From: Xylographa opegraphella
Lineage: Eukaryota
Length of the DNA: 64,000 nt
Reading direction: 5' to 3'
NCBI GenBank assembly: GCA_022813865.1
Contig: JALDZX010000068.1
Location: 1 to 64,000 of the forward strand
A program made the position numbers and the translations under genes. Below are positions 31,117 through 60,725 of this stretch, one piece after another. The notes below the pieces were generated by a model. It ran no database searches, was not told the DNA's origin, and was given only the letters and a program-made list of their open reading frames with translations. Position 1 is the first letter of the stretch, and each line of letters begins with the position of its first letter.

Positions 31117-33378
<2,262 letters not shown>

Positions 33379-34021
33379 CCCCCGTAGGTACATGTCGATT
33401 CGGATTTGTTCTCTTTGCACACCTGTTTGCTTGCGAGGCGCAGCCCTCCTCCAAGCACACTCACTCGCATCTTGATAGGCTACACTTGAGCCAATAGAGA
33501 ATTTTGTTTCCGAAAGGATAAGCACGTGCTGGACTCCTGACGCTGTATGCATAAATAAAAACACACATACGCAGAGATCGAACACTGAGACGGCGTATCA
33601 GATCGTTGTTGGCTATAGAATACCATGAAAAAGGCTGATCACAAAGCAATGAAGTCCGTCGAGAGCAGTATCGCCTGCAGACTGGTGGGTTAATCTTGAT
33701 CCATCGAGCTCGAAGTCGATGCATGATGACAGGCACTGGGAGACCATGGGAATGAATCACGTTCCTGTAGACCAGACATGCGGTAGCTGAAGGGGCATCA
33801 GCGCAACTCGATTGGCTCGTCTCACGCAAAAGGCCCTAGCCCGGGTCGGGATGCTGTTGTTCCATCCACTGCGAAACGCAATGCACCAGAAAGGTTGCTC
33901 CGCTTGGAACGTCAAGCCCAGCTTTCACCACCGAGAGTCTTGGCGTCCTAATATACCATCACCCCACACTATATTCCGCCCCTCTCCCTAGCCCTCTTAC
34001 GAAACCTTCCACCTCCCCACC

Positions 34022-35819
34022 CTACATCCCCCCTCCCTCTCCCTCCATCCCCCGCCCCCTCCCCCTCCCCGCCACCTCGCCCACCTCCGCCCTCGGCACC
34101 ACCACCGGCCCCACGCTCCCCCTCCACCCAGTCCGCTGCTCAAACGCAAACGCCAACGCCAACAACCTCTCCTCACTCCACCGCTCACTCAAAAAGCCCA
34201 GCCCGAACGCCATCCCCGGCCCCGCCATCACAGACCGCAACAGGGGATCGTGTTCTTTCCGCCACGCGACGCTCACGTCCGCGCCAAACGCCCCCATCGG
34301 CACCGTCACCACCGGGGAGCCGGCGTAGGCTGGGAGGTGGTAGCTGAACACGGAGGGGAGGACGAGGGCGTCGAGGGTGTCGGTTTGCAGGGCGGCGAAG
34401 ATGCCGGCGGGGCCGCAGGCGCGGTGGACGGATTGGTAGGCTGTCCACCGCGTGGGCGGAGGTGGGGGAGGAGTGGGTGGAGAGGGCGCTGGTCCATTGG
34501 GAGATGTCGCGGCGGGGGTGTTGCTCGAGGGGGTGGGTGGTGGTGCAGGTAGCTAGGTCCTGGAGGGAGCGGAGTGGGGTGCTGCTGGGGTCGAGGTGGG
34601 AGAGGTAGGTGTTGATGGCGAGGAGGGCGTTGGGGTCTTGGTAGGCAGAGGTGTTTGCATCATCCCATGGGTACGTGGTGTGGGGAGAGGCGCTGGCGAT
34701 GTCGTCGTTGACGATTTGCTGGTCGCTGCTTTGTGCGTTCACGTGGGTATGCTCGCCCTGTTTGGCCGGAAGGCAAGGGAAGCTCGTGTACACGATCGTG
34801 GCCCCCGCTGCTTCGAGGACGGCGAGCGAGTCGTTGAAGCGATGCAGTATGACTTCGAGGTGCTCTGGCGATTGGGCGGGGTGGAGATCGGGGAGGATAC
34901 CGTTCCATGGGACTCCGATGCGAGCACCTTGCAATGCGTCGCGATCAAGGGCTTTGGTGTAGTCCGGTGGGCTCTCGAAGGGCTGCTCCAGCGTGGCGTT
35001 GTCATTTTCGTAGGTATCTTTGCCCGCCATCGCCGTCAGCAGGTAGGCGGCGTCTTTGACCGTTCGTGCCAAAGGGCCCACGACGTCTTGGCGGGGACAG
35101 GAAGCGATCGCCATGTGTCGGGAGACTAATCCCAACGTCGGCTTGACGCCCACCACATTATTCCACTCGGCGGGAATGATGATACTCCCACGTGTCTCCG
35201 TGCCCGCCGCCGCAGCAGCCAGGCCGACCGATACGGCGACGGCACTCCCGCTCGAGCTGCCGCCTGGGTCTTGATCTTCGCGATAAGCACCCCGGCCTTG
35301 GCCTCCGTAGCCGCTCCATCCCAACGATGTGGTGTCGAAATCGGATCGAAAGCCAGCCCACTCGCTCAGGTTAGTCTTCCCCAGGATGATGGCGCCCGCT
35401 CTCCGCAGTTTGGTGATGATGGATGCCTCTTCCAGAACGCGAGCCTCCAGCAGGCACACCGAACCAGCGGTATTGTTCATCTTGTCCTTCGTGGCAACCA
35501 CGTCTTTCACCAGGATCGGAACGCCGTGCAAGGGACCTCGGACCTTGCCCAGAGCGCGCTCCCCGTCAAGCTCTCGAGCGATGGCTTGCGCATCGGGGTT
35601 GATCTCGTTGATGGCGCGGAGCTTATCGTTGACTTCAGAGATGCGCTGGAGGTACACGTCCACAAGCTCTTCACTCGTGGTGGTGCGCTCCTGTAACAGC
35701 TGGCCAATCTCTTCGATTGTTATGTCAAGCAAAGATGGAATTTTATGGCTGTTGCACATGGTGGCAGATATTGAGAGCAAGAGGAGACAGCTGAAAAATA
35801 TCATTGGTCGATAATACAT
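34022..35819 (-). pseudogene. secreted amidase-signature family enzyme with one frameshift near 34450-34490 (pseudogene or assembly error)
   Basis: Signal peptide, GPLHGVPILVKD, GKTNLSEW, PGGSSSGS and GTETRGSI. The expected C-terminus (WTAYQ...LDALVLPS...AGSPVVTVPMG...WSEERLLALAFAFEQ) is in a different frame. Confidence 0.8.
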
Positions 35820-37249
35820 GGTATCCACATCTAGACTGTACACTGACGAACAGAATGAGGCTCGTCTCAATGCGGGAAAGCAAAAGCCACGAAACCTCGT
35901 TCACGGTCTCCAAGGTCCGATATGGAGATATTGGCACCTGTTCTGCCACAACCCGCTCTGGTCGAACTCCGTGAGTCCCGCCTACCAAAGCATATCGATA
36001 CACAATCTACTAAACCGCGAGTATATTGTATACCGGCTGACCCCAAGAGCAGACCATGTAGTCTAGACTTCGGGATTTGAATGCGCATAAGCTTCACAAG
36101 CAACAGGCTTGTGAATCCCGACGCGATAACAGACGGCTGCGCAATGCTTGGATGCAGCGTGGAGAAAGCTTGAATCATAGGCAATCCGTACACTCTGGCC
36201 TGAGGGTGGTGTGATGCAGACTGAAATGACAGGGAACCACATGGGAAAGTCTCGTCCAAAGCTCCGCAATTGGCAAATCGATCTGCACGGTCTGAATGTC
36301 TCTCCGGCGACCTCTCACGATCGAGGACGAAGAGACAAGCAGTAGGCCACGCCTCCACGACAACATCAATCAAGCCGTCGGGAAGGCTCAGGTTCGGTAG
36401 GCATTCTACACCTATAATATTAATGTGGCAGGCCACGAGAATGACACGATGTTATCTGCCGTTCGTGGCGCTCTACTCGCTCTATCTTAACGTATCTGAA
36501 CGACCTCCAGACCACGGAGCGGTTCCAAGCTTTTCGTCCCTCAATTCCTGGTTGGGAAGTGACATCAAGCCCCCTGAAGCCCCCATCCCAATCTCGTCTA
36601 CGTGCAGGCGACGCTCCCGAAACACGGCCACCAATCAGTCCCGGTGGCGGTCCATTCACGACAAGACGCCAACCAATCTCGCCCCCGGGCACCCCGCTAA
36701 TGAAGAGCCCCCCCCCCGATGCCACGCTAATGTAGGCCCCCGAATATTGCCAGCCCCGAAATAGCACAAGCGCATGAAAGCTTGCTCTCCACATCAAAAG
36801 CTCAACCGAAATCCTCTTTCATGTGCAATAGTGTTCATGGGCTTTTATTGCACCGCGTACCTCGTCTTTCGTTGAGGTGTCCGGACGTCTTCACAGTCTT
36901 TGCCCCGTCGTTGCCAAACGCCTTGCAAATACTAAACCATATGGTAGTGTGAACGTTCATGCTTAGTATGAAGCTTCCTCTCCGCTGCTCCGCGTGGCAG
37001 GCGACACCACCAGACTGACTTCGTCACAGGCAAGACGATTTCACTCGGTCCCCGTCCGGGCACGACGTCTGTTGCTCACCACTCTTGGAGCGAATCATAA
37101 CTCTCGTTCCAATTGAGCTCTCGAACTCGTCTTTCGCTTCAACAAATACGCTTGGATTACTCCTTGCTGTCCGTTCGTTTCGGCCCCCTCCCAGCTAGAA
37201 GGTCCACTTTTGTTACACCTCCACCAGATCCCAACTCTTATTCTTCATC

Positions 37250-40352: not shown

Positions 40353-41739
40353 ATGCCCCTCTTCTCTCGTGACTCCGAGTCCCAGAAGCCGCCTACCGTC
40401 CTTCTAGTCCGCGCAAACGATCTACCGCCGCGGACGCTCATCCAGACACGCCAAGGCGCGCCAGATGGCCCCAAAACGCGTTATCAAATTAATCAGCGAT
40501 GCATCTACGAGCGTCGTCTGCCCGGCGAAGCCTACATGACTGCTCACGTCGAGCGTCTGCAGCCTGGTATCTACGATGGCTCCGTCAACATGTCCAAGTC
40601 GGCTGCGCAAAAGCCGAAACCGGCCTCGAAGCCGACGGCGCCTCCACCTGCAAAACCTGCCGTTTCGAAGAGTGGTAGGGCTCAGTTCTTCGGTAAGTTG
40701 TATGTCAGTATCTCAGCTCTACTGCGCTCATTGCCGGCTTAGATTACGGGCAACATCTCAATCAGGTGCAGAGCATGCCCCACGACGTGAACAAGTCGTT
40801 GCGGAAGAAAGGTAATAGAGATTCCATCCGCACCGAGTATATACTCGACGAACAGAGACGTCCTACGTCTGATCACTCGTTGATGGAGACGCTCAAAAAC
40901 CATGGCTGGCCTCCCAGCCCTTCTTCGACCAGTCTGGAGAAGAACCACGACCAAGTCTACTTTGTCGCTATCGGTTTCGTGCTCCACCCGTCAGACTCCT
41001 CGTCTCATCGGTTCAAGGCCGCCCAGATCAAAGTTTCCGTCGACCTGGCCGACTACACAGATCCTACCCTTATTCCGCCGAAAATCATCAAGTTCGCTCC
41101 CCACCTCATTTCCGGGGCGGTATCGCAAGAAACGCTAAACTGGAATTTCAACCTCGCGAGCTCCTTGGGCATCACCCAAGGTCCCGCCAACGTCTCCATC
41201 CAGCCCTCGTACGGCTACTCCGCCTCCACCGTCGTCTCCAAGATGATGAAGATCCAAGGCTCCACGCGCACGACGCCCTGGGGCGTGGAAGACGGCGAGC
41301 TCATCTGGTCCATGGAAGAGAACCCGCTCCAGAAATCGGGCCTGCCTCGGGAGTTCACCTTCGTCGTGCTCGTGCAGGACGCGAACGGCGACCCGGACAA
41401 CATCGACTTCAACATCGAAATCGAGCCCGTGGTCGACACCTGGTACGGCAGCTACCCCGACTTCTGGCAACGGCGGCGCCGCTACCAACCGCTGTACAAG
41501 GCGCCGCTCGACTTCCGAGAGCGCATCGGGCAGCGCTTCTTCTCCAAGCAGGGCGGGGGCACGACCCCTGCCGGCGAGGCGGCGAGGGAATACAACTTTG
41601 CGAACATGGATGGCGATATTGATGATATGGTTCAGTTGCCGGGCAATACGTTCACCACGAAGGTTAGTCGTCTTGGGCCGATTGAAGCCAGATGTGCAGG
41701 AACTGATTGTTTACCTAGGATGCCACGAAGTCGACGTGA
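40353..41739 (+). CDS. uncharacterised beta-rich protein, 3 exons
   Basis: ATG 40353; introns 40693-40742 and 41663-41718 keep the frame. Motifs IIKFAPH, KIQGSTR and WSMEENPLQKSGLPREFTFVVLV. Confidence 0.75.
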
Positions 41740-42629
41740 TTTCCGGCGAGCAAATCACGTGCTATCCTGCTGCGTATTATATAGGTCGATTTCACAATAT
41801 GGTGTCAAGACCCCCTGGTGTACCTTTTCCAGCCTCCCGCATGCTCCTCGTAAGCTCCAACCTCTCATTCGATTGTATTTGAAGGGTCGGGCTAATACGC
41901 TACAGAGCACTCGCAGGACTCCATAGTTCTAACCTTCCTTCCAGCAAAGTCCGAAGTATCCATCCGTCGTGAGCGGGCCATCCGAGCAACCAGGGTCCAC
42001 GCTGCGGCAAGAAGCTCACCTCCCAGTAATGGCTCACGGGAGGAGTCTGCCGGAGCTCTGCGCGGATGTTATCGTTGAGTCGAAATCCGGTGCATACGCT
42101 ACATGCCTAGAACCTGAACGCCTCTGCCAATGACGACCGGAAGGAGTCGTCCCTCACGCACCCGCTTAGGCTGCGGGTGGTGCGGTGTTGGGGACGAGCG
42201 GGGCGGGGCGGTGTTCTTAGAAAGGGAACAGGGGGGCGGAGGTATGTGAGTGATTGGGAGCGGAAGGTGGTGAAATGGGCTGGTGTGAGCGGATGACCTG
42301 GTGGGGGTGCAAAGGGGAGGGTTAGAACACCATGCGGCGGTGGGGGTGATGCTGAAATGTCACGGGTAGAAAGGCTGGTGGAGTGAGGCCGGAGCGATGG
42401 CGGTTTTGGGGAGATGGACGATATGGCTCGGAGGCGTGGAGCGTAGATATCAATGATGAATGACAAAGTGAGCGGAGAAGAGCGGAGAGAAACCATAGTG
42501 CTTGACCGCCACCTACCTAGCTAGCTACTTTATCTAGCAACATCATTCCAACCCGCTCCATCACGGCTCTCACAACTTCCCCCGCGGCACCACGAACCTA
42601 AGGTAGGCATCCCGTTTCCACAGACCAGC

Positions 42630-44499
42630 CTACGACGCCGGCTTCTCATTCAGCAAGCCCTCCACCTTCCCCACCACGCCGGCCACCCACCGCTTGTGCG
42701 CCAACCAAGCGCCATCGACGGGCGGCGTGCGGAACGCGAGCTCCTTGTGGAAGCAGAACGGCACGGGCGGATGGGTCCAGCGGGGCGTGGCGGCGGCATC
42801 GGCGTAGCGGACGACGGGCGCGAGGATGCGGAGGCTCTTGCCGTAGGGGCTGTCCGCGAAATCGACCCACAGCGCGGGCTGGGCGAAGAAGTCGGTCCGG
42901 CGCTTCCACTGCGCGACCATCATGTAGAAGAGGTCGATGACGTGCTGGTCGGGCGTCATGGCCGGCCAGGCGTACCGCTCCTGCAGGCGCGCCACCACCG
43001 CGCGCGGGTACAGGCCCACCTCCGCTTCCAGCGTCGTCGTGTTGTACTTCGTCAGCGCCACCTCGCAGTGGTAGCTGCCGCCGTGCATGGCGCGGTCGCG
43101 CAGCGCGAGCATGATGGTCACGCACCCCGTCGCGCCCGTCGACATGTCCGAGATGGGCAGCGAGGGCAGCACCGCCTTGCCGTCCGTGAAGCCGTACGCG
43201 TTGCCGATCACGTACGAGGACCCTGCGGCTGCGTCCGCGATCTGCTGCCAACCCGGTCGCTCCGCGTAGTAGCCGTCCGGGCCGTAGCAGTTCTCGTCGA
43301 CATAGATGATGCCCTTGTTGCGCTTGTTGGCCATCTCGAGCACGGCGTTGAGGCCGAAGCCCTTACGCTCGATGGACTTGCGGCGGAAGCCGTTGATGAG
43401 CACGTCTGCTTCCTCAAGGAGTTTCCATAATTGGGCACGGTGCTCCTCGGTCGTGAGGTCGAGCTCGGCTTCGACCTTTCCGGCCGTGAGCGAAAACTGT
43501 GCGAGCTGTAGGAGTTATCTTTTAGCATAAAGCGTCTTTCGGAGTTGGGTGGAGAAGGACTCTTACATCCAGATCGACAAGGTTTTTGGAGGTGATGCGA
43601 ACAACGTCGGCGCCCATGGCGGCCAAGGCCGCACCACAAGCAGGAGCAGCGATGATGCGAGCTATCTCGACAACTTTGATTCCTGCCAATGGACGCTTGT
43701 CGGCGGAAATGGGAAAGGGCACAGGCGGTGTTGCGGGGCATTGCTTCTGCACGTTGTACTGGATCAAGCTATGCCTGGCCAGTGCTTTGCCCGTCAAGGT
43801 CTCCCTCCACGCTGCAGGAGAATAGCAAGGGCTGCCGCACAAACCGTGATCCATCATGATCATCTCGATTTCGCGGTAGCTGTACTGCTTGCTGACCGCG
43901 CTGATCACCTCGTATGCTTCATCATTGGTCTTTGGCGCCTTGGTGGGATCGATTCCGAAAGCCTTGCACATGGGAAGTGGGTTGGTAGAGCCGTGCCAAT
44001 TATACCACACACCTGGAGTCTTGGTGGGATAGATTGCTTGAATTCTATACATGATAGTGTTGCCGAGCGCAGCCCCCAGATTAGACGAAGGCATTATCTT
44101 GTCGATCTCGCCAGAAGCATTCAGCTCCAAAGAATCCTTACCGTCAACACTGAAGAGCGGGATCGTCCCAAGATACAAGCCTGCCTGGTCCGTATTGATA
44201 GTGATGGCACCTGCAGAATCCTGCCCCTTCAGCTCTAGAATCTCCTGACCAACAATGCCTGCCATTGCGTGAAGGACAGCAGTCATGGCTTGCGACTTGA
44301 TCGGTCCAGGAATACAAGGATAATCAAGACCTTCGAATTTGACCGCATCCAGCACAGCAGCATCTTGGGTAAAACCAGGAGTGTTTTTTGCGAGATAGTG
44401 TAGTAGGCGAGTACATTCTTTGGGAACAGGGGTAAAATCAGAATCGACGAAGCTGCCAGGGCCATATTCACCCTCCGTCCTTGTAGTCTGTGAATCCAT
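42630..44499 (-). CDS. family III (CaiB/BaiF) CoA-transferase
   Basis: RPLAGIKVVEIARIIAAPACGAALAAMGADVVRI, YGPDGYYAERPGWQQIADAAAG and LPISDMSTG (catalytic Asp region); intron 43507-43566. Confidence 0.92.
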
Positions 44500-45514
44500 A
44501 CTAGATATGATTTTATATCAAGAGATATGAAGAGATTGGAAGACAATTGGGATCAATCAGAAAGCCAACGGGAGATCACTCTACCCTTATTTGAGAAACC
44601 AGCTGTGACACAGTCACCGAGGCCTTCTTATACTCCTCCATCTTCATGATCGGGAGCGGTAATGTACACTCGCTGGCGGAATGGTTGCCGTATTGCCCAG
44701 TCGTCGATGATCGAATCCAAAGATCAGATGTTTGTTGCGCTCGGGCACGAGTGCTCGGGCACAAACCATGTACAGTGGAGTCGCAGGCATGAAGACAGTC
44801 GTGGCTAAAGCTACTGTGATTACTCAGATAACCAACAGCAGCAAAGGTGGAAGAGCTGCAGACATCAACTCCGCTCCCGGTCGAGATAATTAATATTTTG
44901 GCTTGGTCATTAGTCCGAACTGTTAGGCTCTGCATGTTTAGTAAACTCACAAAGTAAAAGTATAGGCATGCAGAATCGCTTATGCCAAGACTGACAAAGA
45001 TACGTTACTGTAAAGCGCCTCAGTCATCCGACTCGCATTGAAATGCTTTAGGTTTCACGGAGCGGGTATGACAACAGATATCAATGTCTGAACTGTGTTT
45101 TGAGCATGCTGTGGTGAGTAGGTTGCGTTTCCATGTCCGAATAAGTGTGGAGAGGGGCTTGTTACCAAGTCAACTGACATAGTTCTCCTAGTGGCTAATT
45201 TATATCCTTGTACCAAGGCATGTACATTGGTTCCGTGGACTACACTATGCGCCGTTTAAGCAGAAATGTATGCCAGAAGAACAGTAAAAACATCTGCATC
45301 GAACCAGGATGAATGACAAGGGCATTTCGATGTGATCGTTGAGTGTTACAGCCGCACGCTTTCCATCAAGTCCGAATACCGAGAAGACAGCAAGCTTTTA
45401 CGGGGCGACAATCTCTGATACTAAAACACTGGGAGTCGTCCGTTTGCAATTCCTAATTCTCAAATTTTCCCACACCTGTATGCAGTATCACTCATAATAG
45501 TTTCACTTCCAATC

Positions 45515-46474
45515 ATGGCGAACAAATCAAGGGTATTCTTTCTGGACCTCGGTATGTCTAACATGAAAGACAATAAGCTCGCAGGTCGTATAATGTCCTG
45601 CAACGGTGACGGCTCCGACCTCAAGCCGTTGGTGGAAGGTATCGGGACTGCTCCTGACGGGCTGGGAATTGACCTCGACAAGAAGCAGATCTACTACACC
45701 AATATGGGTATACCATCAACCGATAGTGGATTCATCTCTCGTGTAGATATGGACGGAAAGAATGACACTGTCATAATTCCTCAAGGCATTACATGGACAC
45801 CAAAACAACTCACGCTCGAACCGACAACCAAGAAGCTGTACTGGTCTGATCGCGAAGGCATGAGAGTTTTCCGGTCAAATTTTGATGGCTCAAATGTCGA
45901 AATATTGGTACGAACTGGTCAAGGCGATGCCAGCAGACAAGATCCTCGCAACTGGTGTGTAGGGATTGCTGTGGACATCAAACGGGGACGAATCTATTGG
46001 ACACAAAAGGGGCCATCAAAAGGAAATCAAGGCCGGCTGTTCACCGCTGGTATCTATCTGCCAGAAGGGGAGTCTGCTGACAATCGAAGCGACAAGAAAG
46101 TCCTGCTTGACCACCTCCCAGAGCCAATTGATCTCGACCTTGATGCGGCGAAGAATGTGCTGTACTTGACAGACCGTGGTGATCCTCCATTTGGTAACAC
46201 AATCAGTAGCATTGACCTCAACGATCCGGCAAAGATCCAGAAGACGACTTTAGTCAAGAAGCTACACGAAGCGATTGGACTGGCACTAGATGTGGAAAAT
46301 AAGCAGATGTACATGACAGATCTTCTTGGAGGATTGTACAGGGCCAACATGGATGGGAGCGAAGAGAAAGTTTTGTTTCCAGATCTGGGAGACCTGACCG
46401 GCGTTGCAGTCATTACAGGCGGCCCAGCACGATGCTCGAGCGCTGCTTGCAATGGTGATCTCTGCGTCCACTAG
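45515..46474 (+). CDS. stand-alone YWTD (LDL-receptor class B) six-bladed beta-propeller, intronless, no signal peptide
   Basis: Repeated blades IYYTNMG, LYWSDREG, IYWTQKG, LYLTDRG and MYMTDL with DGS linkers; 319 aa. Confidence 0.88.
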   Translation: MANKSRVFFLDLGMSNMKDNKLAGRIMSCNGDGSDLKPLVEGIGTAPDGLGIDLDKKQIYYTNMGIPSTDSGFISRVDMDGKNDTVIIPQGITWTPKQLTLEPTTKKLYWSDREGMRVFRSNFDGSNVEILVRTGQGDASRQDPRNWCVGIAVDIKRGRIYWTQKGPSKGNQGRLFTAGIYLPEGESADNRSDKKVLLDHLPEPIDLDLDAAKNVLYLTDRGDPPFGNTISSIDLNDPAKIQKTTLVKKLHEAIGLALDVENKQMYMTDLLGGLYRANMDGSEEKVLFPDLGDLTGVAVITGGPARCSSAACNGDLCVH

Positions 46475-47238
46475 CGGTTCCTACCTTGATGCTCAACAGA
46501 TTCAATCTTAGAAGCCATAGATAAAATACCTGTAGTATCAAAAGTCCTGAAAACAATACTTCCATATGGGCTTGTAACAATTACCCAGATCTTGAGTAGT
46601 TATATCTGTAGCCAACCGATATTCTGAGAGTCTCCATAATATTTCTACCCACGACCCTGGTTTTACGGCTCGTTTTGCTCGATATCCTCGTTGCCGTGCC
46701 ACATCTAGGAAAGGCGAAGCAACACAAAATTGAGCATGTAATGTGTAGACTCCTGTCGTGTGGTATGCATTACTGACCAAAGTTGCATGCAGCAGCTTCC
46801 TGCAGCGCGTTTCTCCTCCACGGCCCGTAAACCGCACTTAGGCTACAAGTCGGTGAGTGAAGGCTTTCCAGAGCCCGCAGCTTAGGAGGAGAGGCTTCTG
46901 AGCCGGTCAAATCGTTGGTCAGCTCGGGAGCTCCACCGGTCTCGTACGAGAAAACGTCGAAAGGTGGAGTGAGGTCGGGTCGCCAAGACATTTGTCCAAA
47001 GCACCTATCCAACCTAGGCTAGAATGACTAGTGACTATGCCAGCGGCTTTACGCAGGGTTGACTCCAGTAATGGAGCAATGTGAATCAATATCATTCGCG
47101 TTGAACTTATCCGTACGAGGTGCAGGAGCAAGAAGTGTATGGTTACAGATACAAAAATGTGCTAGTGTTTTCTATGGAAAGAAAAGTCCACGCAGTCGTA
47201 GGCATCGGCGATCAGTCTCCAGCTCGCAATCAGCCGCT

Positions 47239-48314
47239 TCAAACCAGGTCGGGAGCATTGTCCTTCAGTTTCATCAGACGGATGATAATATCGTCTCTCT
47301 CGCTCTCTACGGACGTGACATCCGTAGTCTTGAGCCAATCCCCAACGCTCGTCTCCAAGCTCTCAATGTTCTCAGGAGTCCACTGGAAGGCATGCTCGTT
47401 CATGTCTTTGGTCCACGCCTGAACACCCGGCCCAAGATGCTCAAGTAAATGCTTGAAACCTGTCGCACCTCCACCTCCGCCGAGGACATTGGTCATGAGC
47501 GGACCTGTGAGTGCCCACCGAAGACCAAGTCCTGAAGTCACACATGTATCTGCGAAAAGAGGGCGAAACGATCAGTACTCTAAGACTTTCAATCCACTGG
47601 AAGAATTTTACCCAGATCTTTGGCAGAGACAACACCCCTCTGTACCAAACTGTAGGCTTCGTTGCCAATCGCCGCTTGCAATCGGTTAGCGATGAAACCT
47701 GGGCTCTCCTGGCGAAGCACAACGGGATGCTTCCCCAGGGACGCGTAGAATTCCGTGGCCAGTTTGGTATATTTGTCGTTCGTTCCAGGATGAGGTACAA
47801 TCTCAACAAGTGGAATTAGGTGGGGCGGATTGAACGGATGGCCAATCAGCACTCGATCCGGGTTCTGCTTGCAATCATCAATGAATTGAGACGACGGTAT
47901 TCCCGAAGACGAGGACGCAATAATGACATCGCTACGTGTCTTCGCATCGATATTTGCAATGAGTTTGCGCTTGAAGTCCACTCGTTCGGGTGCGTTCTGC
48001 GTAAGGCAGGCGTCAATAAAGGCGTAACTTCAGTGGCGCCGCCGTTCTATTACCTCTTGCACAAAGTCCACCGATCCTAAATGACTGTCCATGTCGGAGA
48101 CAAACTTGTAATTCGATAAGGAAGCATTAGATGAAAGCCCGATACGTTCGAGTACTGGCCATTGCTTCTTCAAGTAGGCTGCGAGTTTCTCCTCTGCCCC
48201 TGGAGCCGGATCGGAAACAATGACCTTGAAGCCTTTGGCAAGGAATAGAGCTGTCCAACTTGCCCCGATGACCCCAGTACCTACAACTCCCACGGTCTCG
48301 ATATTTGAAGACAT
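47239..48314 (-). CDS. 3-hydroxyacyl-CoA dehydrogenase family (L-carnitine dehydrogenase / lambda-crystallin-like)
   Basis: Rossmann GTGVIG, spliced QE|NAPE, ASSSSG, GHPFNPPHLIPLVE, GFIANRLQ and GLGLRWA; two introns. Confidence 0.92.
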
Positions 48315-49306
48315 CTTTACAGTAGTATGCAACGACAGTAGATGGAACACCAAGCCTGTGCCAGTGTCAAGAGTCTTTCGCTACTTTGTATAGGACCGTG
48401 CAGTGTTTTCACGTACAACGTGGAACAAGGAGGCATGTCTCTAGTATATATGTAGAACTCGGCCAACGAGCTGTATGAGCAATTTACACTGCAGGGCACA
48501 AGGCCACTCTGCCAATTTGCGATTGCCATGAGACAGCATAACCATGACAACGCAGGTGCTTCGACAGACAATGGTAGAAAATATGTGGTGTTCGACGAAC
48601 GGATTCGTATTGTGACACCATTTCCTGCACCTAGGATGACATGACAAACCTACTTCTATGGCTCAACTGAAGTATACTAATCGGAATCCCCGTCCAACGT
48701 ATTCGTTGTGCGAAGAGAGCCAACAATCATGTGATGACGGGACTTGGAGGCGTCGACCGGCATATCTGCACTGGTGATCACTAGCTTCGATTGTGCCAGT
48801 GGCTGCTAAGTCCTTAGCGCTTTCACGCTTTCCAGGGTCCGGAAAAAGCTGCAACTTCAACGCGTCAACATGTTCAGTTAGTGCACAAACCATATGTAAC
48901 GATGTATAATAATCGCGCTCCTGTCGGTCCTGCTGCGATCCAGTGGGATTACAAGGCTTGGACCATCGTTGTTGACTCAGCTTGTGTACGTCTTTGGCGA
49001 GTCGGGTCTCGAAGTCCGCCATCTAGTGCTGTTCGTGAAGGCTCTGCGAAAGCTGCAGGCGAAAGACAGAGGTTTGTCCGAGTCCTTGGACCCTGCCAAT
49101 CTTCCAGAAACTCATGAAGTCAAGGACAAGTCATATAGAAAAGGGCCGAGGGTTCTCGGTCGAGATTGTAGACATATACTAGATCTTGTATAATCAAGGA
49201 ACGATCACTCTTTATCAAAATCCCCCATTACAATAGTACGCTGTCAGGTGCTGCCGCCATCAATTCTCGTATTCCGCAGGGACAGACTGCATTGTCAGCT
49301 GGAAAG

Positions 49307-50551
49307 ATGGCCGAAGAGTCGATCGTGGTGATAGGTACGGGATGGGCAGGCTTCACTCTCGCCCAGAAGCTTGACGACAAGAAATTCAACATCACAATAA
49401 TCTCGCCCGAGACCACATCACCTTACACACCTCTTTTGGCAAGTGCAGCATGTGGACTGTACGACTTCTCGCTGGCAGAAGAACCAATAAGACGCAAGAG
49501 CAAGAACTTCAAGCTCATCAAGGCCTACGTCGATGACATCGACCTGGAGAAGAAAATATGTTTTTGTCGTCCAGAATTCACAGCCCTCGCACATCAGAAA
49601 TTTGAGATCCCGTACGACCACGTTTTCATTGCACCCGGTTGCACAAATCAGACATTCGGCACCCCTGGCGTTGCTGAGCATGCCCTCTTTGTTCGCAACG
49701 TCCATGACGCCATGGCGGTGCAGAAGCGGCTGGGAGACATCCTAGAAATGGCGTCTCTGCCTATGAAAACCGACCAAGAGCAGAGAGACCTGCTTCACAT
49801 CGCCGTTGTCGGAGGCGGTCCAACCGGAGTCGAGTTAACCGCTGAGTTGTACGATCTTGTGCACGAGGATTTTTCGAAGCTATATCCAGACCTCAATGGC
49901 AAGATCACGATTGCAATCCATGACGTAGCCGATAACATCCTCACCGCGTTCGAGGCAAGTCTGTCCGAATACGCCTTGGAGAGCTTCAAAAAACGGGACG
50001 TGGCCATCAAAACAGGCTCTCATATCACCAAAGTGGAAGCTGATTGCCTGTACACGAAAGAAGATGGTCGTATCCCCTGCGGTATGCTCATTTGGGCTAC
50101 AGGTAACAAGCAGGTACCTCTGGTAGAGGGCCTTCCGGTCCTCAAAAGTGACCATCTCCCACGTATCCTCACAGACACCCGACTTCGCGTTCTGCGTCCA
50201 GATGGAAGCGTATTTGATTCAGCATATGCTCTCGGCGATGCCGCTGATGTGCGAGGTGGTGAACTTCCTACTACAGCAGAGGTAGCTTGCCAAAAAGCAG
50301 ACTATCTTGCCGGCGCGTTCAACAACAACTCCTGGGACAAACCATTCGAATACTCTCAACGCAGCCTCATCGCGTATATAGGCCAGCATGATGGTGTGGT
50401 GATGGGAGGAAAGACTTGGGAAGGCCCTCGGGCGTGGCTGGCGTGGCGCAGGAAGAATCTGATGTGGACGAGGAACTGGAAGAAGAAGATCCTGATAAGC
50501 ATGAACTGGTTTTTGAATTACTTCTATGGCAAAGAAGTGGCGAGGATCTAG
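49307..50551 (+). CDS. type II NADH:quinone oxidoreductase (NDH-2) family, intronless
   Basis: VVIGTGWAG, YTPLLASAACG, TFGTPGVAEHALF, VVGGGPTGVE, YALGDAAD and PTTAEVACQKA. Confidence 0.9.
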   Translation: MAEESIVVIGTGWAGFTLAQKLDDKKFNITIISPETTSPYTPLLASAACGLYDFSLAEEPIRRKSKNFKLIKAYVDDIDLEKKICFCRPEFTALAHQKFEIPYDHVFIAPGCTNQTFGTPGVAEHALFVRNVHDAMAVQKRLGDILEMASLPMKTDQEQRDLLHIAVVGGGPTGVELTAELYDLVHEDFSKLYPDLNGKITIAIHDVADNILTAFEASLSEYALESFKKRDVAIKTGSHITKVEADCLYTKEDGRIPCGMLIWATGNKQVPLVEGLPVLKSDHLPRILTDTRLRVLRPDGSVFDSAYALGDAADVRGGELPTTAEVACQKADYLAGAFNNNSWDKPFEYSQRSLIAYIGQHDGVVMGGKTWEGPRAWLAWRRKNLMWTRNWKKKILISMNWFLNYFYGKEVARI

Positions 50552-58773: not shown

Positions 58774-59225
58774 CGTGCTGTCTGCGACAACGTCAAAAAG
58801 TCGGATTTTGGACGTCGGAATACAACCAGATAGCGAGGAATCAGTATGCAGCAGTCAAAACGAGCCATGAATACCTTACACGGGTTGTCAAAATTACAAC
58901 AATCCTGAAGCTAGTTGTATCTTACACGAATTTTATGCAGGTACCACACATTCGTTTTGTGCAGAACCTCCAAAAATCTTTGCCTAGGTATGATTTCATG
59001 AACTTCACACTTCCTCATTCGTAATCGCTTGGTTTTCTTCAGCATGTGATCTTGATCTGCCTGCTTTTAGCTATTTTTTTGCTGCGCCTTTCTACTGCCG
59101 AGAATCTGCGGCACCTTTGGCATATATAACTCAAGAAACTTGCTAAAGAAGGTGTGAATCGTACATTGTGTAACCATTTATATGTTATATCCAGACCGTA
59201 GCATTCTTTACCAATCCCTACTCGA

Positions 59226-60725
59226 ATGGCATCTGCAAATATTCAAGTTCGAAATGAGACTATCGACTCCAGTAAAGATGCGCAGACTGCTGCGGAGCTG
59301 AAAACCGTCTATGGCCATTCGACCAAGACTCTTCCAGGCTCTTGGTCTCCATCTTCTTGGATAAGCAAACCTATTAAGCAAGATGTCTCATACAAAGATC
59401 GTTCCGCTGTTATTCAGGCACTTGCAAAGTTAGAGAGACTCCCTCCAATCGTCACACCGTCAGAGATTATCAAACTAAGGAAAAGTTTGAGAGATGTTGC
59501 CCTAGGAAAGGCATTTCTCTTGCAAGGTGGAGATTGTGCCGAGCTCTTCGATTACTGTGAACAGAATGCAATAGAATCGAAAATCAAATTACTTCTGCAA
59601 ATGAGCTTGATTCTGATCTGGGGCGCGAAAAAACCAGTTGTGCGTATCGCTCGTATGGCTGGCCAATTCGCTAAACCGCGCTCGAGTCCTTTGGAAATGT
59701 ACAATGGCAAGGAGATACACTCCTTCCGTGGTGACAATATCAACGGCTATGATCCAGAAGATCGGACACCAGATCCTTCTCGACTGGTGGCTGCCTACTT
59801 CCATTCTGCAAGTACAGCAAATTATATTCGAGCTTGTTTAGCCTCAGGTATTGCTGATTTGCATTCACCTCTTGATTGGGGACTCGGCCATGTCCGGGAT
59901 GACAACATAAAGGCCCAGTATCAGAGTATTGTCGAAAGCATAACCGAGAGCCTACGGTTTATGCGGACAGTTGGTGCTGATAGTACCGCGAATGGTCTTG
60001 ACACCGTAGACCTTTACACCAGTCATGAAGGTCTTCTCTTGGAATACGAGCAGAGCCTTACCAGAAGACTCAAACATCCAGCGGCAAGAGCAGATCTTGT
60101 GAAGGATAATGTTATACATGAAGGTGACGGAAAAGGCTGGTATAATACTTCGGCGCATTTTCTTTGGATTGGCGATCGGACCAGGCAGCTAGATGGAGCG
60201 CATGTGGAGTACTTTCGTGGTCTGGAGAATCCAATCGGAATCAAGGTCGGTCCGTCAATGGAAGGAGACGAACTCGTCAAACTGCTGGACATTGTCAGTC
60301 CACATAAAGAGATAGGGAAAGTGACACTTATCACTCGTTACGGGGAAAGCAAAGTCGAGGCTTTGCTTGGCGAGCACATTGAAGCAGTCAAGAAGAGCGG
60401 CCATATTGTTGTTTGGCAATGCGACCCTATGCATGGGAATACACGCAGCACACCGGCTGGAGTGAAGACAAGGCAATTCTCTTCAATACTCAGTGAAGTT
60501 TCGAGTGCCTTAAAAATACACAATCAGCACGGGTCATTTCTTGGAGGCGTACACCTAGAATTAACCGGGGACGCGGTCACGGAGTGCGTGGGTGGGAGCG
60601 AGGGACTAACCGACGATGATCTGAGCCTGAACTATACAACATACTGTGATCCTCGTCTCAACGAAAAGCAATCACTGGAGTTGGCCTTTCTGGTTGCGGG
60701 ACACTATCGAAACAGACAGGTTTGA
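59226..60725 (+). CDS. aro-8: class II DAHP synthase (Neurospora aro-8 type)
   Basis: LLQGGDCAE, RMAGQFAKPRS, YTSHEGLLLEYE, WIGDRTRQLDGAH, CDPMHGNT, GGVHLELTG and CDPRLN. Confidence 0.95.
   Translation: MASANIQVRNETIDSSKDAQTAAELKTVYGHSTKTLPGSWSPSSWISKPIKQDVSYKDRSAVIQALAKLERLPPIVTPSEIIKLRKSLRDVALGKAFLLQGGDCAELFDYCEQNAIESKIKLLLQMSLILIWGAKKPVVRIARMAGQFAKPRSSPLEMYNGKEIHSFRGDNINGYDPEDRTPDPSRLVAAYFHSASTANYIRACLASGIADLHSPLDWGLGHVRDDNIKAQYQSIVESITESLRFMRTVGADSTANGLDTVDLYTSHEGLLLEYEQSLTRRLKHPAARADLVKDNVIHEGDGKGWYNTSAHFLWIGDRTRQLDGAHVEYFRGLENPIGIKVGPSMEGDELVKLLDIVSPHKEIGKVTLITRYGESKVEALLGEHIEAVKKSGHIVVWQCDPMHGNTRSTPAGVKTRQFSSILSEVSSALKIHNQHGSFLGGVHLELTGDAVTECVGGSEGLTDDDLSLNYTTYCDPRLNEKQSLELAFLVAGHYRNRQV

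Follow-up and report, generated by a model that had tools for sequence, protein, structure and literature searches.

The intron-bearing locus at positions 42630-50551 of Xylographa opegraphella contig JALDZX010000068.1, analysed within a window comprising the first 64,000 nucleotides of the contig, encodes a long family-III CoA-transferase, a YWTD propeller, a 3HCDH dehydrogenase and a type-II NADH:quinone oxidoreductase (NDH-2) homologue, and this linked set of a lichen-type fungus matches an operon of many soil bacteria. The grouping of the four genes is beyond chance because the same families recur beside prokaryotic homologues of the propeller. There is about an even chance that the four genes form one conserved module that oxidises a free 3-hydroxy acid, with the CoA-transferase forming a thioester and NDH-2 draining NADH.

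A preliminary description of the window had placed four genes here in two divergent pairs, each sharing about 1 kb, with hypothetical genes on either side. All four genes were present, and their coordinates, order and orientation were as described. The divergent spacers, with bounds taken from the gene models, measured 1015 bp between CoA-transferase and propeller (44500-45514) and 992 bp between dehydrogenase and NDH-2 (48315-49306), and the flanking ORFs carried no Pfam family. The former spacer is presumed to act as a shared promoter of the CoA-transferase and propeller genes; no motif common to both divergent spacers was found. The convergent spacer between propeller and dehydrogenase (46475-47238, 764 bp, likewise bounded by the gene models) held no ORF with a Pfam family.

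The identity and domain architecture of each gene product could be established directly. The CoA-transferase gene (42630-44499, minus strand; Pfam PF02515) encodes 602 residues in two exons (43567-44499 and 42633-43505; stop codon 42630-42632) separated by a 61-nt GT..AG intron (43506-43566, GTAAGA..CTACAG), and the spliced frame is open across all 602 codons. PF02515 matched with 32.3 and 91.6 bits (cut-off 23.3); behind an N-terminal extension of ~265 residues, the protein covers the CoA_transf_3 profile up to about position 210. The protein is 51-53% identical to homologue P0363 and collinear with it through the intron. This architecture, extension included, is common to the fungus and prokaryotes, the extension being homologous to that of the prokaryotic long CoA-transferases (hhalign probability 99.9%, E 3e-31), and it is rare, with 139 representative clusters among 1.84 billion at E 1e-10.

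The dehydrogenase gene (47239-48314, minus strand) encodes a lambda-crystallin/L-carnitine-dehydrogenase-like 3HCDH protein of 318 residues with Pfam matches to PF02737 and PF00725. Its three exons (48054-48314, 47612-47996 and 47242-47549; stop codon 47239-47241) are separated by introns of 57 and 62 nt (47997-48053 and 47550-47611), the splice sites of which were read and the resulting frame and length checked. Exon 2 is 96% identical to P0121 of Xylographa parallela; by tblastn, identity to P0121 was 86% over residues 1-215, which span intron 1, and 96% over residues 216-318, with collinearity throughout.

The intronless propeller gene (45515-46474, plus strand) encodes a 319-residue protein, 91% identical to one from Xylographa vitiligo, that matches PF00058 with 36.2 bits (cut-off 21) and is a stand-alone, intracellular, six-bladed YWTD (LDL-receptor class B) beta-propeller. 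The best structural matches were the propellers of LRP4, nidogen, ApoER2 and LDLR (Z 29-32; Foldseek TM 0.70); those of LRP4, LRP6, LDLR and nidogen share both the six-bladed fold (Z 29-32, rmsd 2.1-2.5 Å over 244-254 residues) and the Pfam repeat. These nearest solved folds are binding domains and do not indicate the role of the propeller in the locus. Metazoan propellers of the LDL-receptor family are extracellular and EGF-flanked, whereas the locus protein stands alone beside metabolic enzymes and shows ~50% identity from fungi to archaea. Also unlike them, it has no room for a signal peptide, the first strand of its AF2 model (pLDDT 91.5) starting at residue 5.

To examine linkage, 80 prokaryotic genome loci carrying a propeller homologue (~50% identity) were sampled, and partners were counted within 5 kb. 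The dehydrogenase was found at 44 of the 80 loci, a family-III CoA-transferase at 41 (33 canonical, 8 of the long form) and NDH-2 at 28; all four families occurred together at 20 loci distributed over 5 phylum labels. Where at least 4 kb was available on both sides (n = 49), the counts were 34 for the dehydrogenase, 22 for NDH-2, 26 for the canonical CoA-transferase and 7 for the long form. With metagenome loci included (n = 160), the dehydrogenase was present at 88, and at 69 of these it lay no more than 300 bp from the propeller. By contrast, two control genes from the window, an amidase (34188-35900) and the ORF at 40697-41923, had no match at any of the same 80 propeller loci.

The exact set of propeller, dehydrogenase, long CoA-transferase and NDH-2 forms a tight co-directional operon at L039, L044, L045 and L057, and the genome loci with this set are four Pseudomonadota, three of them Bradyrhizobium. 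Two rhizobial plasmids (Sinorhizobium and Bradyrhizobium) hold the same operon, with NDH-2 followed directly by haem O synthase and cyoABC, which encode the cyo quinol oxidase. In a Bradyrhizobium genome, the operon NDH-2 was one of 6 matches at E ≤1e-10, one of which is an 80-residue piece.

The fungal NDH-2 (49307-50551, plus strand; 414 residues, no intron) starts at ATG 49307 rather than TTG 49292, at the same Met as a 414-residue Xylographa pallens protein to which it is 92% identical. It matches Pfam Pyr_redox_2 with 129.6 bits, lacks an N-terminal presequence and has Plasmodium NDH2 and yeast Ndi1 as its best solved relatives (E 3e-49 to 9e-49). Its type is that of eukaryotic Ndi1 (170 bits, versus 111 bits to 9mqy), whereas the prokaryotic operon enzyme belongs with 9mqy (400 bits), which makes the NDH-2 genes analogues rather than orthologues.

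In the mechanism that we infer, the dehydrogenase and propeller would be physical partners that jointly use NAD+ to oxidise a free 3-hydroxy acid to its 3-oxo counterpart; the likeliest substrate is a 3-hydroxy fatty acid of medium chain length. The long CoA-transferase would load the 3-oxo or 3-hydroxy acid onto CoA for thiolysis and beta-oxidation, and the presequence-less NDH-2 would pass electrons from NADH to quinone and the respiratory chain, thereby pulling an otherwise unfavourable oxidation forward. Ketone-body utilisation, in which (R)-3-hydroxybutyrate dehydrogenase is followed by succinyl-CoA:3-oxoacid CoA-transferase, shares this logic of converting a free (R)-3-hydroxy acid to a 3-oxo acid before CoA transfer. 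The families differ: the ketone-body enzymes are an SDR dehydrogenase and a family-I transferase, without a dedicated NDH-2, whereas X. opegraphella has a 3HCDH protein with a propeller and a family-III transferase of the long form.

Of the preliminary interpretation, the module, the 3-hydroxy acid and the NDH-2 sink are retained, and the propeller as a step, carnitine and an aromatic acid are not; nothing points to aromatic acids. The NADH-sink role fits the recurrence of NDH-2 and the cyo quinol oxidase on the rhizobial plasmids. The only characterised enzyme that pairs a 3HCDH domain with a YWTD propeller, Aspergillus nidulans AN8921.4 (beta-hydroxy-MCFA dehydrogenase, betaHDH; 3HCDH-YWTD), is consistent with a 3-hydroxy acid substrate: according to PMC12462446, it is NAD+-dependent and acts on free (R)-beta-hydroxy C8-C14 fatty acids, and the authors invoke a CoA-transferase as the following step. 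The earlier statement that no described pathway has this composition is partly outdated, since this enzyme was described in 2025. Compared by domain make-up only, AN8921.4 and the present locus both combine 3HCDH with a YWTD propeller in a fungal, clustered and apparently cytosolic setting. However, AN8921.4 is a single polypeptide, whereas the X. opegraphella dehydrogenase and propeller are separate convergent genes. According to PMC12462446, AN8921.4 lies in the CYP540A2-CBBR cluster with a P450 and a cytochrome b5/b5-reductase fusion as partners, in place of the long CoA-transferase and NDH-2 found here; neither P450 nor cytochrome b5 was detected in 36 window ORFs of at least 130 residues or in 49 further ORFs of approximately at least 80 residues from the locus spacers and 36-64 kb.

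The same module could instead operate with activation first, as originally proposed, with the CoA-transferase acting before the dehydrogenase; a dedicated cycle resembling beta-oxidation would then have the oxidation of a 3-hydroxyacyl-CoA by the dehydrogenase as its third step. An acyl-CoA dehydrogenase (ACAD) and an enoyl-CoA hydratase lie within 5 kb of the propeller at 35 and 37 of the 80 genome loci, respectively, and together with 3HCDH would cover all but one of the four steps of beta-oxidation; the Pfam name of the dehydrogenase, moreover, derives from CoA-ester dehydrogenases. Both ACAD and hydratase are nonetheless absent from the fungal cluster and from the exact four-gene operons, and AN8921.4 oxidises free acids (PMC12462446). 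The closest solved or curated relatives of the dehydrogenase, namely FHMPC dehydrogenase, lambda-crystallin/L-gulonate 3-dehydrogenase and L-carnitine dehydrogenase, are also free-acid enzymes, with 3ado, 3f3s and 4om8 the closest solved structures to the operon dehydrogenase (E 1e-46 to 8e-48). Because this subfamily acts on free acids, oxidation followed by activation is at least as likely as the reverse, and an activation-first cycle appears somewhat unlikely. Lambda-crystallin/L-gulonate 3-dehydrogenase and FHMPC dehydrogenase are not known to require a propeller partner.

It is improbable that the substrate is a different 3-hydroxy acid, such as carnitine/gamma-butyrobetaine, an L-gulonate-type sugar acid or a hydroxy-dicarboxylate (3-hydroxyadipate, HMG). 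The top NCBIfam rows are PRK06129 and L-carnitine dehydrogenase for the dehydrogenase (the latter best or second-best) and succinate-glutarate CoA-transferase for the long CoA-transferase, but all scores fall far below the curated cut-offs: 258.9 versus 347 for PRK06129, 242.6 versus 414 for L-carnitine dehydrogenase and 86 versus 750 for succinate-glutarate CoA-transferase. The shortfall against PRK06129 also sets the dehydrogenase apart from lambda-crystallin/L-gulonate 3-dehydrogenase and FHMPC dehydrogenase, and carnitine, an option raised in the preliminary description, is not supported at these cut-offs. The prokaryotic set of family-III CoA-transferase, ACAD, hydratase (crotonase) and ligase resembles CaiA-D of Escherichia coli, and the same families occur in dca-type dicarboxylate operons, according to the available part of bioRxiv 10.1101/251942. 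Yet every score was under the equivalog cut-offs, the Cai system lacks a propeller and NDH-2, and the operon partners are of fatty-acid type (a FadE-like ACAD, a short-chain enoyl-CoA hydratase and a fatty-acid-CoA-ligase-like enzyme). The operon ACAD gave 415 bits to FadE versus 126 bits to crotonobetainyl-CoA dehydrogenase, and the canonical CoA-transferase gave 89 bits to CaiB.

The propeller had been described as a separate step. Fusions of 3HCDH and propeller (641-688 residues) were observed at 4 prokaryotic loci, in the domain order published for AN8921.4, although no fused form was found among the best 120 dehydrogenase matches. Because the two are fused in prokaryotes and A. nidulans, the propeller is probably a partner of the dehydrogenase and not a pathway step of its own. 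That it is itself an enzyme, e.g. a lactonase or esterase freeing a hydroxy acid from a lactone, estolide or oligomer, seems quite improbable: a weak Pfam SGL match (E 7e-5), structural matches to beta-propeller lactonases (Z 20-24) and very strong conservation (56 invariant columns, many of them Asp/Glu/Arg/Asn, in 24 sequences from fungi, bacteria and archaea) would accord with catalysis, but at 22.9 the SGL match misses the cut-off of 26.3, the YWTD binding domains clearly outscore every enzyme match, fusion to the dehydrogenase in two kingdoms suggests joint action, and recombinant AN8921.4 by itself catalyses dehydrogenation (PMC12462446).

A synteny check revealed linkage of propeller, dehydrogenase and NDH-2 in some fungi and of all four families in prokaryotes, which supports the earlier claim of one functional module. 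Consecutive locus tags in Scytalidium lignicola encode propeller (g4213), dehydrogenase (g4214) and NDH-2 (g4215), and in Friedmanniomyces simplex the propeller (04300) and NDH-2 (04302) are close neighbours. Among the matches listed, propeller and dehydrogenase lay on equal-sized contigs in 11 of the 14 species with both. Linkage of NDH-2 in fungi is patchy: it lies ~1000 locus tags from the dehydrogenase in Peltaster fructicola and on a contig of unequal size in Rhizodiscina and Mollisia, and 11 Aspergillus/Penicillium species that retain the linked propeller-dehydrogenase pair were not represented among the best 120 NDH-2 matches. This distribution would suit a fungal unit consisting of the pair only, with CoA-transferase and NDH-2 adjoining through inherited synteny, but such an arrangement is hardly probable given that both extra families join the pair at 20 of the 80 prokaryotic loci, that the pair has the rare long CoA-transferase subfamily nearby at 8 of the 80 and that two genera outside the class of Xylographa, Scytalidium and Friedmanniomyces, also have NDH-2 next to it. 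The propeller and dehydrogenase trees agree on the nearest relatives, namely Scytalidium, Agyrium and A. unguis.

Six-frame ORF calling and Pfam searches across the whole window confirmed that positions 42630-50551 hold four consecutive genes in two divergent pairs, as a preliminary description had stated. The first pair consists of a family-III CoA-transferase gene on the minus strand (42630-44499; one 61-nt intron, 602 amino acids) and an intronless gene on the plus strand encoding a YWTD/LDL-receptor-class-B propeller (45515-46474; 319 amino acids). The second consists of a 3HCDH dehydrogenase gene on the minus strand (47239-48314; introns of 57 and 62 nt, 318 amino acids) and an intronless plus-strand gene for an NDH-2 homologue (49307-50551; 414 amino acids). 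The divergent spacers measure 1015 and 992 bp. Splice sites were read off the sequence; homologues that stay collinear through the introns served as one check, and counts of frames and stops as another. The window is fungal, with short GT..AG introns and top protein matches from Xylographa species (Lecanoromycetes); identity to Xylographa proteins was 91% for the propeller, 96% for the dehydrogenase (window exon 2 compared with P0121, the Xylographa parallela ortholog) and 92% for NDH-2.

No Pfam family was found in the ORFs flanking the cluster, and the rest of the window is mixed, with F-box proteins, a Mug190-like SMP/C2 protein, a DnaJ-CSL protein, a sulfatase, an amidase and a class-II DAHP synthase. 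The sulfatase, which is in two ORF pieces and bears an SGSH_C domain, lies with the amidase upstream of the cluster at 31399-35900, and the DAHP synthase ORF, of the plant/bacterial type, occupies 59202-60725 (507 amino acids, Pfam E 6.6e-200). No Pfam match to a P450, cytochrome b5 or reductase was present in 36 window ORFs of at least 130 amino acids, nor in 49 more ORFs of at least ∼80 amino acids from the cluster spacers and the 36-64 kb region. The motif CCTCGG, the FarA/FarB fatty-acid regulatory site of Aspergillus nidulans, occurs 30 times in the window against 32 expected, which is the level of chance; one of these occurrences falls in each divergent spacer. Comparison of the two spacers revealed no repeat in common.

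The propeller scored 36.2 bits against PF00058 (gathering score 21) and 22.9 bits against the SMP-30/gluconolactonase/LRE-like family PF08450, under the cut-off of 26.3. An AF2 model of the protein was confident (pLDDT 91.5), with low confidence only in the tail at residues 304-319. Foldseek retrieved LRP6 and nidogen at E 1e-17 (TM 0.70), and VIA-align placed LRP4, nidogen, ApoER2 and LDLR at Z 29-32, the next rows being at or below 25; NHL domains and lactonases followed at Z 20-25 (lactonases 20-24). Because the nearest solved folds are YWTD domains, clearly above NHL domains and lactonases, the model points to a true YWTD propeller. It would be a stand-alone and putatively intracellular one: the propeller fills the whole ORF, its first strand starting at residue 5, and the extracellular, EGF-flanked context of metazoan YWTD domains is absent from this ORF. 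An alignment of 24 fungal, bacterial and archaeal sequences had a mean column identity of 52% and 56 invariant columns. The family is very large, with more than 7900 proteins reaching E 0.001.

Stand-alone microbial YWTD propellers are named “LDL receptor,” “YncE” or, on plasmids, “3-hydroxyacyl-CoA dehydrogenase” in the databases. The last label, in RefSeq/GenBank, is carried by propellers devoid of a dehydrogenase domain on three rhizobial plasmids (L161, L162, L164) and in further homologues (H1-H7), and was probably transferred from fused proteins. Two proteins labelled as plant, one from Dipteronia sinensis with 65% identity to the fungal propeller (P0010) and one from Quercus suber with 58% identity to the fungal NDH-2 (P0255), probably reflect fungal contamination of those assemblies.

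The exon translations of the dehydrogenase gene matched PF02737 (42.7 and 92.3 bits) and PF00725 (24.3 against 22.1). The solved structures nearest to the dehydrogenase of the prokaryotic operons described below are FHMPC dehydrogenase and lambda-crystallin. The fungal and operon enzymes score under the NCBIfam cut-offs of both PRK06129 and L-carnitine dehydrogenase, and they form a subfamily of their own among the free-acid 3HCDH enzymes. Four prokaryotic loci (L001, L052, L066 and L073) encode fusions of 641-688 amino acids in which 3HCDH is N-terminal and the propeller C-terminal; in the window, the two are separate convergent genes 764 bp apart. No protein of ∼650 amino acids was found among the 120 best dehydrogenase matches in a search covering lengths of 257-2000 amino acids. 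The dehydrogenase and the propeller probably belong together.

An enzyme combining the two domains has been known since 2025 (PMC12462446). According to that source, A. nidulans AN8921.4 has the same domain order, 3HCDH followed by propeller; it oxidizes free (R)-beta-hydroxydecanoate with NAD+ (Km 60 μM, kcat 12 per s) and accepts C8-C14 beta-hydroxy acids. Medium-chain fatty acids induce the gene, which clusters with CYP540A2 and a cytochrome b5/b5-reductase fusion, and a 3-ketoacid CoA-transferase was proposed by the authors for the next step (PMC12462446). The Xylographa locus differs from this: 3HCDH and YWTD domains form one chain in AN8921.4 but are encoded by two genes in the window, and neither a CYP540-type P450 nor a cytochrome b5/b5-reductase fusion is among the window ORFs examined.

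The exon translations of the CoA-transferase scored 32.3 and 91.6 bits against PF02515 (cut-off 23.3), yet they cover only profile positions 1-35 and 57-210 of 366, which departs from the canonical ∼400-residue architecture, and are preceded by an N-terminal extension of ∼265 residues that has no Pfam family. The same layout recurs in fungal homologues (555-596 amino acids) and in prokaryotic operon forms (503-632 amino acids), in which an extension of ∼245-280 residues, likewise of no Pfam family, stands ahead of a domain matching PF02515 from position 1 to ∼186-233. Profile-profile comparison of seven fungal with seven prokaryotic long forms gave a probability of 99.9% (E 3e-31), and the aligned range (fungal 51-482, prokaryotic 55-447) therefore includes the N-terminal extension in the homology. 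The long form is rare, with 139 of 1.84 billion representative proteins at E ≤1e-10 and 33 at E ≤1e-30. These comparisons indicate an unusual subfamily common to fungi and prokaryotes.

A single Asp is invariant across 27 long-form sequences (D428 in the fungal homologue P0363) and aligns with the Asp of “..AMTD..” in the solved chain 10uh_A. This residue would correspond to the catalytic position, Asp169 of formyl-CoA transferase/CaiB, as judged from PDB entry titles naming Asp169 mutants and aspartyl intermediates. Curated equivalogs (SUGCT-like, formyl-CoA, mesaconate, CaiB) scored at best 86 against a threshold of 750 bits with P0363, and the best NCBIfam equivalog for the prokaryotic long form at L039 reached 68 against a cut-off of 442. 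A whole-chain model of the long form was confident (pLDDT 93.6, pTM 0.95) and its only structural matches were family-III transferases and racemases, aligned at rmsd 2.2-6.3 Å across 212-239 columns or at 8-10 Å across ∼370-420. The last ∼30 residues of the predicted window protein (42633-42728) overrun the alignment end of four fungal homologues; the stop assigned there is putative, and a further small intron may be present.

The window NDH-2 scored 129.6 bits against PF07992. E values were 3e-49 to 9e-49 (∼170 bits) for its matches to Plasmodium NDH2 and yeast Ndi1 and 1e-17 to 6e-31 for those to bacterial NDH-2, with 111 bits for the solved chain 9mqy, whereas the NDH-2 of the prokaryotic operons is of the 9mqy type (400 bits). 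The fungal and operon genes thus appear from their sequences to be analogous rather than orthologous, which would make their repeated association more telling, not less. The C-terminal membrane-anchor family PF22366 scored 19.7 bits, under its cut-off of 27.7. Matches to solved chains begin at residue 4-6, and homologues of 412-418 amino acids share the same start; because the protein and its homologues open directly with the FAD-binding fold, an Ndi1-like matrix presequence is unlikely. Peroxisomal targeting was also considered and dropped: the C-terminal ARI of the window protein recurs in Xylographa pallens, but the end is VMH in Scytalidium.

The propeller was next used to locate the gene set in prokaryotes. 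A scan of one genome per prokaryotic species gave at least 584 confirmed matches, counted over the first 600 stretches, and the best 80 loci were analyzed. In tblastn searches of these best 80 with the window exon translations, the dehydrogenase was matched in 45-46, NDH-2 in 31 and exon 2 of the CoA-transferase in 8, while two control genes from the window, the amidase (34188-35900) and an ORF at 40697-41923, were matched in 0/80. ORF clustering and Pfam searches revealed a recurrent operon of acyl-CoA dehydrogenase, enoyl-CoA hydratase, canonical family-III CoA-transferase, propeller, 3HCDH and NDH-2 genes, to which a fatty-acid-CoA-ligase-like enzyme is often added. Strict counts required a match to a bacterial query at E ≤1e-20 over half of its length or more, no farther than 5 kb from the propeller. 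On this basis the dehydrogenase was found at 44 of the best 80 loci (34 of the 49 flanked by at least 4 kb on either side), the enoyl-CoA hydratase at 37 (27/49), the acyl-CoA dehydrogenase at 35 (24/49), the canonical CoA-transferase at 33 (26/49), NDH-2 at 28 (22/49) and the long CoA-transferase at 8 (7/49). All four window families occurred together at 20 of the best 80 loci, under five phylum labels. The interpretation of the fungal genes as one catabolic cluster was largely borne out, and the same gene set recurs in prokaryotes.

Among the 80 metagenome loci listed, most of them short, the dehydrogenase was present in 43-47 and NDH-2 in 16-17, depending on query and threshold. The listed metagenome matches were only 48-55% identical and looked prokaryotic, with no close fungal contig among them. 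Over all 160 loci listed, the dehydrogenase was found in 88, and within 300 bp of the propeller in 69.

The exact four-gene composition of the fungal cluster, here in the order propeller, dehydrogenase, long CoA-transferase and NDH-2, co-directional and tightly spaced, was seen in three Bradyrhizobium loci and one other pseudomonadotan locus (L039, L044, L045 and L057). At two Nitrososphaera loci the long transferase is divergent to the propeller-dehydrogenase pair, as in the fungus. The same four-gene operon is carried by annotated plasmids from Sinorhizobium chiapasense and from Bradyrhizobium sp. CB82, where it is immediately followed by a hypothetical gene of ∼145 residues, haem O synthase and cyoA/B/C (L161:8944-18843 and L162:8959-18858). 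Upstream on the Sinorhizobium plasmid and at L039 lies a divergent gene for a ∼2000-residue protein-kinase/AAA/GAF/PAS/histidine-kinase sensor (∼1960 in L161), which in L161 is accompanied by response regulators. Terminal-oxidase, haem-O-synthase or oxidase-assembly genes were present at 11 of the best 80 of at least 584 genome loci, including 5 of the 6 pseudomonadotan loci with the long transferase. In four Verrucomicrobiota loci, comparison for a common promoter-like motif gave no convincing repeat of at least 22 nt.

Fungal synteny was read from locus tags and equal contig sizes in protein search tables. In Scytalidium lignicola (Leotiomycetes), propeller, dehydrogenase and NDH-2 have consecutive tags (B7463_g4213, g4214 and g4215) on one 164-kb contig, and in Friedmanniomyces simplex (Dothideomycetes) the propeller (B0A55_04300) and NDH-2 (B0A55_04302) share a 31-kb contig. 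Propeller and dehydrogenase tags are near neighbors in Agyrium rufum (004646 and 004644), Penicillium nucicola (008633 and 008636) and Aspergillus unguis (159424 and 159428), and of 14 species for which both genes were listed, 11 have the two on contigs of equal size. NDH-2 is distant from the dehydrogenase or on a different contig in Peltaster, Rhizodiscina and Mollisia, and no Aspergillus or Penicillium species is among the 120 best NDH-2 matches; for these reasons the propeller and dehydrogenase are regarded as the fungal core and NDH-2 as a frequent but inconstant companion.

In both the propeller and the dehydrogenase trees a single branch parts fungi from prokaryotes (SH-aLRT 99 and 100), and the window genes have identical nearest relatives. 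These trees have no outgroup and therefore assign neither a direction of transfer nor a donor. In the propeller tree, archaeal Nitrososphaera is nested among bacterial propellers, prokaryotic phyla are intermixed, and Lipomyces starkeyi, of a yeast lineage, groups with Scytalidium (SH-aLRT 100); both the prokaryotic and the fungal pattern suggest horizontal spread.

It is probable that the four fungal genes form a functional unit. NAD+-linked oxidation of 3-hydroxy acids is thermodynamically unfavorable and is driven by removal of the products. Beyond the gene identities, architectures, linkage and fusions seen in the sequences, the scheme inferred as most likely is the following: the dehydrogenase and propeller would oxidize a free 3-hydroxy (fatty) acid, the long CoA-transferase would form the CoA ester, then open to thiolysis, and NDH-2 would move electrons from NADH into the quinone pool, which in rhizobia may be drained by the co-encoded cytochrome bo3 oxidase. 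For this scheme in full, substrate class included, we judge the chances to be evenly divided.

The main competing explanation keeps the order of the preliminary description, in which CoA activation comes first and the dehydrogenase acts on a CoA ester. It is favored by the presence of acyl-CoA dehydrogenase and hydratase genes in many of the prokaryotic operons; the dehydrogenases group with free-acid enzymes, and CoA-ester oxidation is considered unlikely. That the substrate is carnitine, a sugar acid or a dicarboxylate appears quite improbable, given the failed family cut-offs: P0121 scored 242.6 against L-carnitine dehydrogenase NF005471 (cut-off 414) and 258.9 against PRK06129 (cut-off 347), and the prokaryotic operon dehydrogenases scored 284-312 against L-carnitine dehydrogenase (cut-off 414). 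On these NCBIfam scores a carnitine pathway was rejected, and with it the carnitine-like option raised initially. Little probability is given to a propeller that is catalytic in its own right, its lactonase-type matches ranking below YWTD domains, and equally little to the CoA-transferase and NDH-2 being there by mere synteny: the inconstancy of NDH-2 in fungi speaks for this last reading, and the recurrence of both families beside the pair at 20 of the best 80 prokaryotic loci speaks against it.

A bolder reading makes the module a private “substrate-to-quinone” respiratory branch, conserved in fungi, bacteria and archaea. Here the intracellular propeller would be an obligatory non-catalytic partner that docks the hydroxy-acid dehydrogenase to a dedicated NDH-2 at a membrane, and in proteobacteria the chain would go on to a dedicated cytochrome bo3 oxidase from the same operon; NADH would be passed locally and not via the cellular pool, and fungi and bacteria would have recruited their NDH-2 separately, from the Ndi1 type and the 9mqy type, respectively. 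Taken jointly, these propositions are improbable, but if they are true, the independent recruitment of NDH-2 would show selection on the coupling itself.

If the scheme is correct, (R)-3-hydroxy fatty acids would enter beta-oxidation while bypassing the acyl-CoA dehydrogenase and hydratase steps. Such acids arise as polyhydroxyalkanoate monomers, as constituents of lipid A and rhamnolipids, and as P450 products. Joint encoding of a catabolic enzyme and its own NADH:quinone oxidoreductase, as the module would then represent, is rare. The fungal locus and its prokaryotic counterparts give the propeller defined partners, namely a free-acid 3HCDH, a rare long CoA-transferase, NDH-2 and the rhizobial cyo oxidase, and its function thereby becomes testable in Bradyrhizobium, Sinorhizobium and Cupriavidus as well as in fungi, rhizobia being the easiest. 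The full-text literature searched contained no account of separate dehydrogenase and propeller genes accompanied by a long CoA-transferase and a dedicated NDH-2, of the prokaryotic operon counterpart, or of the link of that operon to cyo oxidase. The only source there to bear on the four-gene module was PMC12462446, and the 2025 A. nidulans discovery is here extended to a split-gene, P450-free form with other partners.

Several prokaryotic loci depart from the common pattern. On a Rhizobium ruizarguesonis plasmid, two acetoacetate-decarboxylase-family genes (L164:11650-13415) follow an operon of the acyl-CoA dehydrogenase/hydratase type in which the CoA-transferase is split; a free beta-keto acid as intermediate would be consistent with them, as an anecdote only, such genes being found in none of the 160 loci and nowhere in the window. 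Some Acidobacteriota-type operons (L013, L021, L006, L007 and L068) include a gene for a PoxB-like ubiquinone-dependent pyruvate dehydrogenase, a further enzyme linked to quinone. In the genome of Bradyrhizobium sp. CER78, NDH-2 has six matches, among them the operon copy and an 80-residue piece, and there are at least three propeller-dehydrogenase pairs: two at L016, one of them with acyl-CoA dehydrogenase, canonical transferase and glyoxalase-family genes, and one at L045 with the long transferase and NDH-2. These pairs suggest paralogous modules for different substrates.
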